DNA of 64,000 nt. It comes from an uncultured Actinomycetes bacterium (lineage in GTDB: Bacteria > Actinomycetota > Thermoleophilia > Gaiellales > Gaiellaceae). Position numbers and translations under genes: made by a program. Shown here piece after piece: positions 22,109-26,951 of the stretch. The stretch is from NCBI GenBank assembly GCA_963710125.1, contig CAVPZH010000016.1:72915-136914 (forward strand). The letters are read 5' to 3'. Each line of letters starts with the position of its first letter. Position 1 is the first letter of the stretch. The notes beneath the pieces are model-generated. The model was not told where the DNA came from and did not search any database. It worked only from the letters and a program-made list of their open reading frames with translations.

Positions 22109-23938
22109 ATGGCCGCTCCCAGCCAGACGAGCTCCGCGTTCCCGAGCCCGTACGAGGTCGAGACCCCTCCCGGCTGCGAGGGGTGGCAGGAGATGTACCC
22201 GTACCACACGCTGTTCCACGAGGCGCGGCGCGAGGCCGACGAGAACCGGTTCTGGTTCTGGAACTCGATGCACTTCCCGGTGCCGATGCCCGCCTTCGAC
22301 GTCCACTGCGCCGACAGCCCGTACCAGGCGATCGGCGTCTGGCAGAACCGGGTGTTCGCGGTGCCCCCCGCGATGGGGATCGACTACCGGATCCTGAACG
22401 GCTACGTCTACATCTCCGGCAACCCGGTCACCGACCCGGAGAAGATCGCGGAGCGAGCCGAGTACTTCCAACGGCGCGCCGGGTACTACTACGAGCACTG
22501 GGACGAGCTCTACGCCAGGTTCAAGGAGAAGATGCAGGCGCTGATCGCGGAGATCACGGAGCTCCCCGTTCCCGACCTCCCGGAGTACGAGCCCGACGAG
22601 GTGGCGTTCGAGGACGACCGGAACACCGCCGTGTACGGGGTCCTCGACGCCTACCAGCGGACGCTGCGCTGCGCCGACCTCATGTGGCAGCACCACTTCG
22701 AGTTCCTCCTGCTCGGCTACGGCGCCTACATGACGTTCTCCGAGTTCTGCAAGAGCCAGCTGCCCGACATCCCCGACCAGCACGTCGCGCAGATGATCGC
22801 GGGGATCGACGTGCTGCTCTTCAAACCGAGCGCGGAGCTGCGCAAGCTGGCGAAGCTCGCGATCGACATGGGCGTCGACGGCGCGTTCGTCGAAGGTCGC
22901 TCGCCCGCCGAGATCGACGCGGAGCTCTCCCGGAGCGAGGCCGGGCAGCACTGGCTCGAGGAGCTCGAGCAGGTGAAGGACCCCTGGTTCAACATGGCCA
23001 CCGGAGACGGGCTCTACCACTTCTACCGGAGCTGGTACGACGACCCCAGCATCGCGTACGCCTCTCTCGTCGGGCACGTGCGTGCGCTGCACGACGGCGA
23101 AGAGGTCGAGCGCCCGCTCGACGAGATCGCACGCGAGCGGGACCGCCTGGCTGAGGAGTACGGCAAGCTGATCGACGAGGGAGCGCGGGGGACGTTCGAC
23201 GAGCTGCTCGCCCTTTCGCGGACGGTGTTCCCCTACGTCGAGGAGCACAAGTTCTTCTGCGACTACTGGTTCCTCACCCGCTGGTTCAACAAGCTGCGCG
23301 AGTTCGGGGCCTTGCTCGCCGAGCACGGCTTCCTCGAGGACGGGGAGGACATCTTCCAGCTGGCCCGCCACGAGGTCGCGCAGGCGCTCGACGAGCTCGT
23401 CCTGACGTGGGCCACGGGCGGCATGCCGCTCGGCCCTGCACACTGGCCACCGATCGTCGCGCGGCGCAAGGAGCTGCTCGAACGGCTGGGCGAATGGACG
23501 CCGCCCCCGGCCGTCGGGGCGACGCCCGAGGCGATCACCGACCCCGCCGTGATCATGCTGTGGGGCGTGACGACGCAGCGCGTCCAGGACTGGGCGAGCG
23601 CCGAGCACGGTGGCGGACGGCTCACGGGAGCGGCCGCGTCCCCCGGCGTCGTCGAGGGTGTCGCCCGCGTCGTGATCGACGTCGAGGAGATCGCGCGCGT
23701 CCGCGACGGCGACATCCTCGTCTGCCCGATCACCTCACCGGCGTGGGCGCCGATCTTCTCGAACGTCAGGGCGGTGGTCACCGACATCGGAGGCGTCATG
23801 TCGCATGCGGCGATCGTCTGCCGCGAGTACGGGCTGCCTGCCGTCGTGGGCACGGGGCGCGCGACGGCGGAGATCGCAACGGGGCAGATGATCCGCGTCG
23901 ACGGCTCGAACGGCGTCGTCACCATCCTCGACTCCTAG
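22109..23938 (+). CDS. PEP-utilising-enzyme mobile-domain protein, phenylphosphate-synthase alpha (PpsA)-like
   Basis: The ATG at 22109 is preceded by GAGGAGG. The N-terminal region of about 450 aa ([23 protein letters not shown].., [17 protein letters not shown]) is followed by a swivel phosphohistidine domain (..[15 protein letters not shown].., [24 protein letters not shown]). No PEP/pyruvate TIM-barrel domain follows. Confidence 0.85.
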   Translation: [609 protein letters not shown]

Positions 23939-23942
23939 AGCA

Positions 23943-25023: not shown

Positions 25024-25470
25024 ATGCCGCTGAGCGACGACGACGTCCGCGAGATCCTTCGTCTGATCGACGAGTCCGACGTCGAGGAGCTCCGGGTGGA
25101 GACCGACGGGCTGTCGCTCTACGTCCGGCGGAGCGGCGAGCAGCAGGAGGCCGGCCCGGCGGAGACGGCCCCTCGCGCGGACGCCACCTCGGGGAGCGCG
25201 GCGGCCGCAGCCCGGCCGACCGACGGGCTCCACGAGATCACTGCGCCGATGCTCGGCACCTTCTTCCGGGCCCCGGCACCCGGGGCGACGCCGTTCGTGG
25301 AGGTCGGCGCGCGTGTCGCCGAGGACACGGTCGTGTGCCTGATCGAGGTCATGAAGATGATGAACGCGGTCTCAGCCGGAGTCGTCGGGACGGTGGTCGA
25401 GGTGTGCGCGGTGAACGCCGAGCTCGTCGACCCCGGGGAGCCTCTCTTCCGTGTACGGCCGGAGCCGTGA
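25024..25470 (+). CDS. Biotin carboxyl carrier protein (AccB-type BCCP)
   Basis: 148 aa with an AccB-like N-terminus (DDVREILRLIDESDVEELRVE), an Ala/Pro-rich linker and the biotinyl-lysine motif CLIEVMKMMN. Confidence 0.9.
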   Translation: MPLSDDDVREILRLIDESDVEELRVETDGLSLYVRRSGEQQEAGPAETAPRADATSGSAAAAARPTDGLHEITAPMLGTFFRAPAPGATPFVEVGARVAEDTVVCLIEVMKMMNAVSAGVVGTVVEVCAVNAELVDPGEPLFRVRPEP

Positions 25471-26951
25471 CCGGCCTCGTCGAGATCGTCGACACGACGA
25501 CGCGCGACGGAAACCAGAGCCTCTGGAGCGCGACGGGTCTCACGACGTCCGACATCGTCGCGATCGCGCCGACGCTCGACCGCGTGGGCTTCGCCGCGGT
25601 GGACTTCACCTCGAGCACCCACATGGCGGTCGCGGTCCGCTTCCACCGCGAGGATCCCTGGGAGCGCCTCCGGCTCGTTCGCGCGGCCATGCCGGAGACG
25701 CCGCTCAGCTTCATCACGACGGGCATGCGCTTCATCACCTGGGTCCCGGCGGACGAGGACGTGATCCGGCTCGCGTTCCGGTGCGTGGCGCGCAACGGGA
25801 TCCGCCGCTTCCAGGTCGCCGAGCCCTCCAACGACCCGGCGCGCCTGCGCCGCATCGCCGCGCTGGCGCACAGCGAGGGGGTCGAGCAGGTCGTGATCGC
25901 CCTGACGTACTCGGTGAGCGAGGTGCACACGCACGCGTACTACGCGGAGCGGGCGGCGGCACTCGCCGACTGCGACGACATGGACGGCCTCTACCTCAAG
26001 GATCCCGGCGGCCTGTTGACGCCGGATGCCGTGCGCGAGCTCGCGCCCCACTTCGTGCGGGCGGCGGGCGACCGGCCCGTCGAGCTCCACAGCCACTGCA
26101 CGATCGGGCTGGCCCCCTTCGTGTACGTCGAGGGAGTGCGCGCCGGGTTCGACACCCTCCACACCGCCGTCGCCCCTCTCGCCCGGGGCACCTCGAACCC
26201 CGCCGCCGAGACGACGATCCGCGACCTCGAGGCAGAGGGCTTCTCCCACCGGCTCGACCTCGACGCGCTCGCCGCGACCTCCTCGTACTTCGAGGTGCTC
26301 GCGCAGGAGAAAGGGCTCCCGACCGGCAGCCCGCAGGAGTTCGACGCGACCTACTACCACCACCAGCTCGCGGGGGGCATGGTCTCGACCACGCGCCGAA
26401 TGCTGGAGGAGCTGCGGCGGCCCGAGCTCTTCGACGCCGCGCTCGAGGAGGTCGGCCGGGTCCGCGCCGAGATGGGCTACCCGATCATCGTCACCCCGGT
26501 CTCGCAGCAGGTCGCCACACAGGCGGTCCGCAACGTGATCGACGCCGAGCGCTGGTCGAACGTCTCCGACGAGACGATCCGCTATTTCCTGGGGCACTAC
26601 GGCGAGCCCGCGGCGCCCGTCTCCCCGGACGTCGCCGACCGGGTCCTCTCCCGCGCACGCACCCGTGAGCTGCGCGACCTCGAGCCGCTGCACCTCGAAG
26701 GCGCGCGGGCGCGCTTCGGCGGCGGGATCTCCGACGAGGAGCTCCTCCTGCGCCTGACGATGCCCGAGGAACAGGTCGACGCGATGCTCGCCTCGCCCCG
26801 CGCGGACGGGCGCGCCGCCGCACCGTCCCGGGCAGACCGGGAGCCGCACCCGGTGGTGACCCTGCTGCGCGAGGTCGAGAGCCGCCGGTCGGTGTCGCAC
26901 CTCCGCGTCCAGAAGGGCGACGAGCTCGTGGAGTGGCGCCGTGCGCCTTGA
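25467..26951 (+). CDS. Pyruvate-carboxylase-subunit-B/oxaloacetate-decarboxylase-alpha-type carboxyltransferase (5S-like), without its own biotin domain
   Basis: The GTG overlaps the BCCP stop (GTGA). It has the HMGL-like motif VDTTTRDGNQS, then ..LHSHCTIGLA.. and a PYC_OADA-like C-terminal region. Confidence 0.9.
   Translation: MTGLVEIVDTTTRDGNQSLWSATGLTTSDIVAIAPTLDRVGFAAVDFTSSTHMAVAVRFHREDPWERLRLVRAAMPETPLSFITTGMRFITWVPADEDVIRLAFRCVARNGIRRFQVAEPSNDPARLRRIAALAHSEGVEQVVIALTYSVSEVHTHAYYAERAAALADCDDMDGLYLKDPGGLLTPDAVRELAPHFVRAAGDRPVELHSHCTIGLAPFVYVEGVRAGFDTLHTAVAPLARGTSNPAAETTIRDLEAEGFSHRLDLDALAATSSYFEVLAQEKGLPTGSPQEFDATYYHHQLAGGMVSTTRRMLEELRRPELFDAALEEVGRVRAEMGYPIIVTPVSQQVATQAVRNVIDAERWSNVSDETIRYFLGHYGEPAAPVSPDVADRVLSRARTRELRDLEPLHLEGARARFGGGISDEELLLRLTMPEEQVDAMLASPRADGRAAAPSRADREPHPVVTLLREVESRRSVSHLRVQKGDELVEWRRAP

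Follow-up and report, generated by a model that had tools for sequence, protein, structure and literature searches.

Background

The Hpe pathway for hydroxyphenylethanones was described in 2022 in Rhodococcus rhodochrous GD02, where the genes lie in the order hpeH-I-C-B-A-D-E-F and hpeC encodes the biotin carboxyl carrier protein (BCCP) (PMC9618137). The kinase HpeHI acts first, on acetovanillone and 4-hydroxyacetophenone; only once phosphorylated are these carboxylated by the biotin enzyme HpeCBA, at the cost of one ATP, and HpeD removes the phosphate from the carboxylated product (PMC9618137). The Acv system of Sphingobium sp. SYK-6, also reported in 2022, comprises a kinase (acvA-B), a BCCP (acvC), a biotin carboxylase (BC; acvD), a PycB-like carboxyltransferase (CT; acvE) and a HAD protein (acvF), and the strain needs all of acvABCDEF to grow on acetovanillone and acetosyringone (bioRxiv 10.1101/2022.04.28.489975). 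In this study, we report an operon of this type that has no BC gene, located in a 64,000-nucleotide stretch of DNA from an uncultured bacterium of the Gaiellaceae (GenBank assembly GCA_963710125.1, contig CAVPZH010000016.1, positions 72,915 to 136,914; hereafter the window), and show that the same arrangement recurs across the Thermoleophilia. We put at about 60% the probability that the operon encodes a working Gaiellales version of the hydroxyphenylethanone pathway, its carboxybiotin being supplied by a BC encoded elsewhere.

Later work on HpeHI established it as a two-component enzyme related to rifampicin phosphotransferase and bearing the motif T/SxxGGxxxH, and supplied the structure of HpeI (9GOJ); the enzyme accepts several phenols and, as a dikinase, releases the gamma-phosphate of ATP as inorganic phosphate (PMC12167813). 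Identities among PpsA, CreH and HpeH are ~45% (PMC12167813). In Aromatoleum aromaticum EbN1, XccABC, a putative 4-hydroxyacetophenone carboxylase, is clustered with hpeHI homologues (PMC9618137). Industrial depolymerisation of lignin yields acetovanillone and related hydroxyphenylethanones as major products, and efforts to engineer the Hpe/Acv pathway for their valorisation are under way.

Methods

Genes in the window (G+C ~70%) were called using a codon-usage gene model together with a list of open reading frames (ORFs), and domains were assigned with Pfam and NCBIfam profiles. Plasmid-borne clusters, including those of Rhizobium leguminosarum pRlBT01c and Rhodococcus sp. JS3073, were found by tblastn of plasmids with the window CT (45-49% identity). 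BC was searched for by tblastn using an E. coli AccC query, in which Pfam finds a complete BC (PF00289, PF02786, PF02785); as a positive control, this query recovered the BC genes of four canonical clusters (44-47% identity).

Relatives were collected by a scan of GTDB species genomes, from which the best 80 loci were taken. All are metagenome-assembled genomes (MAGs) of Thermoleophilia (CT identity 65-85%), belonging to Gaiella/Gaiellaceae, Solirubrobacterales and Thermoleophilaceae; individual loci are cited by number (L001 and so on). Layouts were assigned by tblastn and by the spacing from BCCP to CT. The CT tree was rooted on proteobacterial and Rhodococcus clusters and calculated with 100 bootstraps. 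Ratios of nonsynonymous to synonymous substitution rates (dN/dS) were obtained by comparing the window with 10-14 BC-less relatives. A CT column was counted as conserved when it was at least 93% conserved in the other layout classes, which gave 222 columns.

Results and discussion

An Hpe-type operon in the window

Five tightly coupled co-directional genes on the + strand (22109-27741) encode, in order, a PpsA-like swivel-histidine protein, a PPDK_N ATP-grasp protein, an AccB-like BCCP, a PycB-like CT and a HAD-IIA phosphatase (Table 1). A strong Shine-Dalgarno sequence, GAGGAGGA at 22100-22107, stands immediately 5' of the ATG at 22109. The genes follow one another closely: gaps of 4 and then 7 nt separate the first three, the BCCP stop overlaps the CT start by 4 nt (GTGA), and CT and HAD overlap by 11 nt. 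A first-pass annotation, made from the sequence before any database search, had described this coupling correctly except for the first gap, which it gave as 5 nt. Catalytic motifs are intact in all five genes and the expected domains are all present; in the Pfam scans that the annotation had proposed, PF01326, PF00391, PF00364, PF00682 and PF02436 were found and PF02896 was absent. Database annotations of these proteins read 'pyruvate, water dikinase', 'acetyl-CoA carboxylase BCCP' and 'oxaloacetate decarboxylase alpha'. No promoter or terminator was found in a scan of 21800-28100, which is uninformative because the DNA is 70% G+C.

Table 1. Features of the window (above) and of reduced clusters in related loci (below); numbers are positions in the respective sequence.
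Feature	Position	Strand	Domains and remarks
HpeH/AcvA-like dikinase alpha subunit, 609 aa	22109-23938	+	substrate-binding domain, swivel phosphohistidine domain
HpeI/AcvB-like dikinase beta subunit, 357 aa	23943-25016	+	ATP-grasp PPDK_N, PF01326 (E = 3.5e-96)
HpeC/AcvC-like BCCP, 148 aa	25024-25470	+	AccB-type N-domain (aa 1-36), Ala/Pro-rich linker, biotinyl domain
HpeA/AcvE-like CT, 494 aa	25467-26951	+	PycB/5S-type TIM barrel, PF00682, PF02436; own biotinyl domain absent
HpeD/AcvF-like HAD-IIA (NagD-type) phosphatase, 266 aa	26941-27741	+	PF13344, PF13242, PF00702
HpeE-like acetoacetate-CoA-ligase-family enzyme	7334-9325	+	PF00501, PF16177, PF13193; unlinked to operon
MTHFR-like protein	17225-18817	+	PF02219, PF12225
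LigM/DesA-type tetrahydrofolate-dependent aryl O-demethylase	18907-20301	+	NF047885, 664.8 bits (cut-off 580)
Alpha/beta hydrolase, divergent	20320-21063	-	PF12697
Zinc-ADH/quinone-oxidoreductase-family protein (PIG3-like), divergent	21063-22001 (start alternatively 22085)	-	PF08240, PF00107, PF13602
Intradiol dioxygenase	43746-44561	-	
Mutator-family transposase	50162-51160		
Adenylate cyclase-AAA-TPR protein	51224-54205		
HisKA_3 kinase and LuxR-type response regulator	55402-58118		
BCCP_N-CT fusions, 529-543 aa	L018 1389-2996; L023 9839-11428; L024 1140-2735; L019, L022, L025, L026 ~9830-11460		
BCCP N-domain as 54-aa ORF	L020 9840-10004		
Clusters reduced to HpeH, (BCCP_N-)CT and HAD	L019, L022, L025, L026 ~8020-12250; L037 8115-12287		

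The first two genes encode the halves of a two-component PpsAB-like dikinase, an alpha subunit with the swivel motif and a PPDK_N beta subunit, as in Hpe and Acv clusters. The sole Pfam match of the 609-aa protein is PF00391 (residues 532-602), and the PEP/pyruvate TIM barrel is missing. Its motif TDIGGVMSH, with catalytic His566 at nt 23804-23806, fits T/SxxGGxxxH and has Met at -2 as in the published description of HpeH (PMC12167813). NF006153 (PRK08296.1-5, named 'hypothetical protein') matches it over its full length with 915 bits and is also the top model for HpeH of canonical clusters; the PRK08296 sub-models of NCBIfam fail to separate HpeH from its paralogues, since a solitary paralogue has the same best model as canonical HpeH and the window protein. 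The top PDB match of the 357-aa protein is the HpeI crystal structure 9GOJ (264.6 bits); its identity to canonical HpeI is 38-41%, and it is as long as canonical HpeI, without an added domain. The BCCP is a stand-alone AccB-like protein, as in the described clusters, covered over its full length by the AccB-type model TIGR00531 (111.6 bits, under the cut-off of 115.2); its biotinyl domain (PF00364) carries EVMKM, with Lys111 at nt 25354-25356. Identity to the BCCPs of canonical clusters is 37-46% (46% to the Rhizobium copy), the Rhodococcus BCCP falling under the coverage threshold.

In the CT, the motifs RDGNQS, KDPGG and HSH are all present, the metal ligands being D14, K178, H208 and H210. 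The protein scores under every PycB, OadA and 5S cut-off of NCBIfam and, as in the Hpe and Acv clusters, has no BCCP domain; it is nearer to the CTs of canonical Hpe and MarK-type clusters (45-49% identity) than to PycB/OadA (31-38%). The closest solved structures are 5KS8 (PC-beta), 2NX9 (OadA) and 1RQB (5S subunit), and the PDB search with the CT returned no structure of HpeA or AcvE. A NagD-like HAD-IIA protein directly 3' of the CT is likewise common to the Hpe and Acv clusters; here it has the nucleophile motif DVDGT at aa 12, scores 88.9 bits with TIGR01460, and is 31-35% identical to the HAD proteins at the same position in canonical clusters. Thus the domain reading of the first-pass annotation was confirmed throughout: a swivel phosphohistidine protein lacking the TIM barrel, a separate ATP-grasp half, EVMKM in the BCCP, and a CT with RDGNQS that matches PF00682 and PF02436 only. 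It had also named rifampicin phosphotransferase (RPH) as a possible assignment. This was rejected, the domains being split over two proteins and NF041857 giving 122 bits (the PpsA-like protein) and 247 bits against a cut-off of 999.

Comparison with described systems

The Rhizobium leguminosarum pRlBT01c cluster runs in the order PEP-utilising enzyme, PPDK_N, BCCP, BC, CT, HAD, acetoacetate-CoA ligase and amidohydrolase, and the cluster on the plasmid of Rhodococcus sp. JS3073, whose HpeI differs little from the GD02 protein of the crystal structure, has the same layout. The window genes are orthologous to these. Identity to the JS3073 copies, which are near-identical to GD02, is 48% for HpeH, 41% for HpeI, 45% for the CT, 31% for the HAD protein and 42% for the ligase, and to the Rhizobium copies 47% for HpeH and 31% for the HAD protein. 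With the GD02 system the window shares the His-swivel dikinase pair, the AccB-like BCCP, the BCCP-less PycB-like CT, the NagD-like HAD protein, their order and translational coupling, and an acetoacetyl-CoA-synthetase-like ligase encoded within its bounds. It differs in that hpeB is missing between BCCP and CT, the ligase is 13 kb off, an HpeF-like hydrolase is absent from the window, the host belongs to the Gaiellales rather than the Mycobacteriales, and the neighbouring demethylase is LigM-type rather than VanAB. By its published description, the Acv system has the same order, acts on methoxylated lignin aromatics including acetosyringone, and occurs in an organism with LigM/DesA demethylases; however, acvD, present and essential in SYK-6, has no counterpart in the window.

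XccABC, also by published description, is a homologous BCCP/BC/CT set, but it includes a BC (XccC) and belongs to the anaerobic p-ethylphenol pathway. MarK-type clusters (PMC12624787) have the same BCCP-CT-HAD core, with CTs 46-48% identical to that of the window, but contain BC and a single-chain, unrelated UPF0261/Tm-1-like kinase instead of HpeHI. Plasmids carry MarK-type kinase, BCCP, BC, CT and HAD genes in Pseudomonas putida YC-AE1 (L003, 5874-12216) and Sphingobium yanoikuyae YC-JY1 (L005, 4936-10321), and a further such plasmid cluster is found in Sphingomonas bisphenolicum; transposases flank these clusters. We take all three strains to be bisphenol-A degraders, and the clusters could be a 4-hydroxyacetophenone branch of bisphenol-A catabolism.

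PpsAB(C) of Thauera aromatica resembles the window pair in its two-subunit dikinase architecture and phosphohistidine mechanism, but serves ring carboxylation by a biotin-independent UbiD-family enzyme, whereas the partner here is a biotin carrier with a PycB-like CT. By Pfam no UbiD-family subunit was found in the operon, its neighbours or most other predicted window genes (some small ORFs unscanned), and a phenylphosphate synthase/UbiD system was rejected, no such subunit being found with the dikinase. Three biotin enzymes were also considered and rejected: oxaloacetate decarboxylase (OadABG, Gcd, Mmd), with no OadB-type gene near the cluster in the window, L001 or L002 and TIGR01108 at 273 against 756; the 12S/5S/1.3S transcarboxylase, with no PF01039 among conserved neighbours and the 5S model NF008984 at 190 bits against a cut-off of 827; and a split pyruvate carboxylase (PycA/PycB), with NF006761 at 306 against 402 bits, covering the CT part only, and BC absent.

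The first-pass annotation had suggested an undescribed module, in which a phenol would be phosphorylated through histidine, CO2 handled by biotin, and the HAD protein would act on a phosphorylated intermediate. Judged by the homologous Hpe pathway this chemistry appears essentially right; the module itself had already been published in 2022 as Hpe (PMC9618137) and Acv (bioRxiv 10.1101/2022.04.28.489975), both biochemically characterised and having the same order plus BC. As far as found in the searchable literature, what is new is the occurrence throughout the Thermoleophilia, the conserved and recurrent absence of BC, and a further reduction to HpeH, BCCP_N-CT and HAD. No mention of Hpe clusters from Thermoleophilia or Gaiella, or of BC-less Hpe clusters, was found in searchable literature and supplements.

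Recurrent loss of biotin carboxylase in Thermoleophilia

No BC was found by tblastn of the full 64-kb window (best match E = 0.92), which bears out the earlier observation that an AccC-type BC is missing from it. The dedicated AccC-like BC (HpeB/AcvD), located between BCCP and CT in Hpe and Acv clusters, is lacking here, and the absence is shared with many relatives. The canonical layout, HpeH-HpeI-BCCP-BC-CT-HAD with a BCCP-to-CT gap of ~1.3 kb, was found at 37 of the 80 loci, and the window layout, HpeH-HpeI-BCCP-CT-HAD with a gap of -10 to +61 nt, at 31. At 4/80 loci only the N-terminal 35-57 residues of BCCP are left, as a 54-aa ORF (L020) or fused in frame to CT (L018, L023, L024). Five more also lack HpeI, consisting of HpeH, a BCCP_N-CT fusion of 533-543 aa and HAD (L019, L022, L025, L026) or of HpeH-CT-HAD (L037); the clusters of the remaining three are truncated by contig ends. 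Within +/-10 kb of the 31 BC-less loci tblastn found no BC. Flanking genes are common to canonical and BC-less loci, which form a continuous series, and because the same order recurs in 31 species-level MAG loci the BC-less arrangement is not a matter of chance.

Metagenomes add at least 120 CT relatives, all >=80% identical among the matches listed; two of these, on contigs of 1.6 and 3.1 Mb, lie with the same five genes and no BC. The pathway is thereby placed in Thermoleophilia (Gaiella, Solirubrobacterales), which are abundant, barely cultured soil actinobacteria. The best 80 genome loci and at least 120 metagenomic CT relatives, from or like Thermoleophilia, go far beyond the 'small number of bacteria' first reported. 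Surveys demanding colocalised kinase, BCCP, BC, CT and phosphatase would miss the BC-less clusters.

The co-occurrence of kinase pair, BCCP, CT and HAD in relatives, for which the first-pass annotation had asked, therefore holds, without BC at 31 of 80 loci. It had also raised the reading that a BC is adjacent in homologous clusters, the locus being an ordinary split pyruvate carboxylase beside an unrelated kinase. Adjacency was found in the canonical clusters and at 37/80 Thermoleophilia loci but not at 31/80, and the reading itself fails, since the Hpe pathway couples the function of the kinase to that of the carboxylase.

In the CT tree, the window clade is monophyletic (bootstrap 100). A second BC-less clade is also monophyletic (100) and joins BC-containing Thermoleophilaceae (93), the two BC-less clades having a bootstrap of 0 for grouping together; other BC-less loci are scattered within the Solirubrobacterales. 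Because the two BC-less clades never group together, BC was lost at least twice independently, and probably five times or more. The BC-less clusters are recent derivatives of BC-containing ones. The loci without a biotinyl domain form a single sub-clade within the window clade (bootstrap 95), except L020 and L037. In losing BC repeatedly, and then the biotinyl domain with fusion of BCCP_N to CT, these clusters amount to a natural experiment on subunit sharing and on the minimal parts of heteromeric biotin carboxylases. To our knowledge no BCCP_N-CT fusion has been described.

Such a series within one clade, with BC, then the biotinyl domain and then HpeI lost, might suggest that the operon is the remains of a canonical Hpe cluster that ceased to function when BC was lost and is still eroding. 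We consider this very improbable. The five genes keep their catalytic motifs and evolve under purifying selection, dN/dS being 0.17 for HpeH, 0.30 for HpeI, 0.18 for CT and 0.33 for HAD, and within BCCP 0.14 for the N-domain and 0.31 for the biotinyl domain against 0.74 for the linker; moreover, 31 species-level genomes share the layout, and metagenomes contain it in great abundance. EVMKM is kept in BC-less relatives wherever the biotinyl domain is readable, and since it is conserved and the domain has a dN/dS of 0.31, the biotinyl domain seems still to be in use.

A stable and recurrent loss of BC would also be expected of an enzyme that does not need one: BCCP and CT without BC are the signature of biotin decarboxylases and transcarboxylases, and the CT is homologous to the oxaloacetate-binding domains of 5S and OadA. 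The operon might then encode an ATP-independent enzyme, either a transcarboxylase drawing on oxaloacetate or a (methyl)malonyl thioester, or a decarboxylase of aroylacetate phosphate. This is unlikely in our view, as the conserved neighbours include neither a 12S-type CT (PF01039) nor an OadB-type membrane subunit, the BC-less clusters descend recently from BC-containing ones with the CT virtually unchanged, and the kinase and phosphatase that the known carboxylation route needs have been retained.

Reduced clusters and the source of carboxybiotin

The conserved absence of BC is real and is the part that still needs explanation, the source of carboxybiotin being the main question. The most reduced clusters bear on it. 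In CTs of clusters without a biotinyl domain, 221/222 conserved columns are kept, metal ligands included, which speaks against a new biotin-free CT chemistry and in favour of carboxybiotin reaching the CT from beyond the cluster; the comparison points to a CT that is unchanged and still carboxybiotin-using. With one of 222 columns differing, neofunctionalisation of the CT in these relatives was not supported.

Pfam confirms the BCCP_N-CT fusion protein and the lack of an ATP-grasp gene close to it, and at the five HpeI-less loci no ATP-grasp gene of the HpeI type was found within +/-10 kb. A solitary HpeH paralogue (~49% identity), without adjacent HpeI, occurs in L019, L023 and L026. HpeH alone transfers phosphate between aryl phosphates and phenols (PMC12167813), an activity that may bear on these variants; their gene content suggests trans sharing of ATP-grasp subunits, or else an HpeH confined to phosphotransfer.

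These loci also weigh on the idea that the dikinase itself activates bicarbonate, the gamma-phosphate passing into carboxyphosphate to charge biotin with the PPDK_N protein in place of BC. The dikinase does free the gamma-phosphate as inorganic phosphate (PMC12167813), and BC, the missing part, is an ATP-grasp protein like HpeI. Precedent is lacking, however, HpeI has its canonical length and no extra domain, and relatives without HpeI keep an unchanged CT; because HpeI is dispensable in some relatives we find such a mechanism hardly credible. Taken more broadly, delivery of CO2 without any BC, by transcarboxylation from a central metabolite or by carboxyphosphate from the gamma-phosphate, is distinctly unlikely; the Gaiellales CT would then have become independent of a dedicated BC, and in close relatives also of a biotinyl domain or HpeI from the cluster. 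A milder variant, still new, would have a TIM-barrel CT use the retained or fused AccB N-domain to attach to the BC/BCCP complex of fatty-acid synthesis and take carboxybiotin from it. BC-less layouts may permit smaller engineered operons, or reveal a new way of supplying carboxyl groups.

Proposed pathway and its substrates

We favour the reading that the operon is a working Hpe-type pathway with BC provided in trans. By analogy with the characterised homologues, the two-subunit dikinase would pass phosphate from ATP through His566 to the 4-hydroxyl of acetovanillone, acetosyringone or 4-hydroxyacetophenone; the CT would move CO2 from carboxybiotin on Lys111 of BCCP to the acetyl methyl of the aryl phosphate; and the HAD-IIA protein would take the phosphate off the carboxylated product, giving an aroylacetate. 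From the aroylacetate, the ligase at 7334-9325 and downstream enzymes could then form vanillate or syringate, on which the neighbouring LigM-type demethylase would act. Another locus of the genome most likely encodes the AccC/AccA-type BC that carboxylates the biotin on Lys111, probably the one of fatty-acid synthesis; the AccB-type N-terminal oligomerisation domain of BCCP may help to recruit it.

Actinobacteria share one BC-BCCP alpha subunit (AccA3, AccA2) among several carboxyltransferases. A trans-acting BC is plausible because of this sharing, because the BCCP is AccB-like over its full length, and because the BCs of canonical clusters are ordinary AccC-like proteins. In a study of the E. 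coli acetyl-CoA carboxylase filament, the BCCP N-terminus of ~30 residues was proposed to oligomerise and tether BCCPs (PMC11160672). By analogy, we hypothesise that the N-domain could dock the CT onto a BCCP assembly encoded elsewhere; a tethering role would explain why this domain is the most conserved part of BCCP and is kept, and even fused to CT, where the biotinyl domain is gone.

Several points weigh against this reading. No candidate for the trans BC was identified in the 64-kb window, which is the sequence covered, nor does the window contain an HpeF-like amidohydrolase. We know of no documented case in which a 5S/PycB-type CT borrows BC or BCCP from another carboxylase. Close relatives reduced to HpeH, CT and HAD are also compatible with a changed reaction. 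Finally, identity to the characterised Hpe proteins is only 31-48%, and substrate specificity is therefore not established.

The same low identity allows for a paralogous pathway of the same architecture acting on another phenolic ketone or aldehyde, such as propiovanillone-type compounds or diketone lignin fragments. HpeHI itself accepts several phenols (PMC12167813), solitary HpeH paralogues occur in relatives, and the genes upstream of the operon include a GMC oxidoreductase, a short-chain dehydrogenase/reductase (SDR), thiamine pyrophosphate (TPP)-dependent E1 alpha/beta subunits and a molybdenum hydroxylase. We found no direct counter-evidence; synteny and the LigM-type context nevertheless fit methoxylated hydroxyphenylethanones best. 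We hold a different substrate to be unlikely.

Neighbouring genes

The ligase at 7334-9325 scores 877 bits with NF002937, which confirms the acetoacetyl-CoA-synthetase-like family given by the first-pass annotation. It lies 13 kb from the operon, is 42-50% identical to ligases of canonical clusters (42-45% for JS3073 and Rhizobium), and is a candidate aroylacetate-CoA ligase. HpeF-like amidohydrolases were found near three BC-less relatives.

The demethylase at 18907-20301 also scores 699 bits with NF047633, under the cut-off of 800, and LigM-type orthologues adjoin the cluster in L002, L015, L017, L022, L025, L028 and L072. It is a candidate for a downstream step on vanillate or syringate, and the methylenetetrahydrofolate reductase (MTHFR)-like protein beside it likely recycles methyl-tetrahydrofolate for it. 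In L022, a single 737-aa frame (2562-4775) joins an MTHFR domain to a LigM-like GCV_T domain C-terminal of it, where the window has two genes; this may reflect a genuine fusion, or else the loss of a stop codon in a MAG built from long reads. Both genes end a long co-directional catabolic island upstream of the operon (4933-20301) with the GMC oxidoreductase, SDR, acetoacetyl-CoA-synthetase-like ligase, a glyoxalase-fold protein, TPP-dependent E1 alpha/beta without E2, a three-subunit molybdenum hydroxylase, a 6-phosphogluconate dehydrogenase-like reductase and an extradiol dioxygenase. With the intradiol dioxygenase counted in, the gene content of the island fits methoxylated lignin monomers.

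Between the demethylase and the operon, the divergent alpha/beta hydrolase and the PIG3-like protein, of the zinc alcohol dehydrogenase (ADH) type, are kept as a pair at that position in most loci of the window clade. The hydrolase is found at the same position in L001, L002 and many other loci (48-71% identity), and also in many canonical Solirubrobacterales clusters; the PIG3-like protein is conserved at 69-77% in the window clade and scores 187 bits with TIGR02824, under its cut-off. Both may belong to the pathway, the hydrolase for instance as a stand-in for an HpeF-like enzyme.

Downstream, the window (28810-31712) and L001 (12356-15226) have in common genes for an Ig-like secreted protein and a PAS-HisKA_3 sensor kinase, the latter perhaps regulating the operon; L001 also has a dodecin gene there. 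From ~44000 to 64000 of the window, G+C falls from ~72% to 65-67% and coding scores are weaker, and this part, which contains the Mutator-family transposase, may be acquired DNA.

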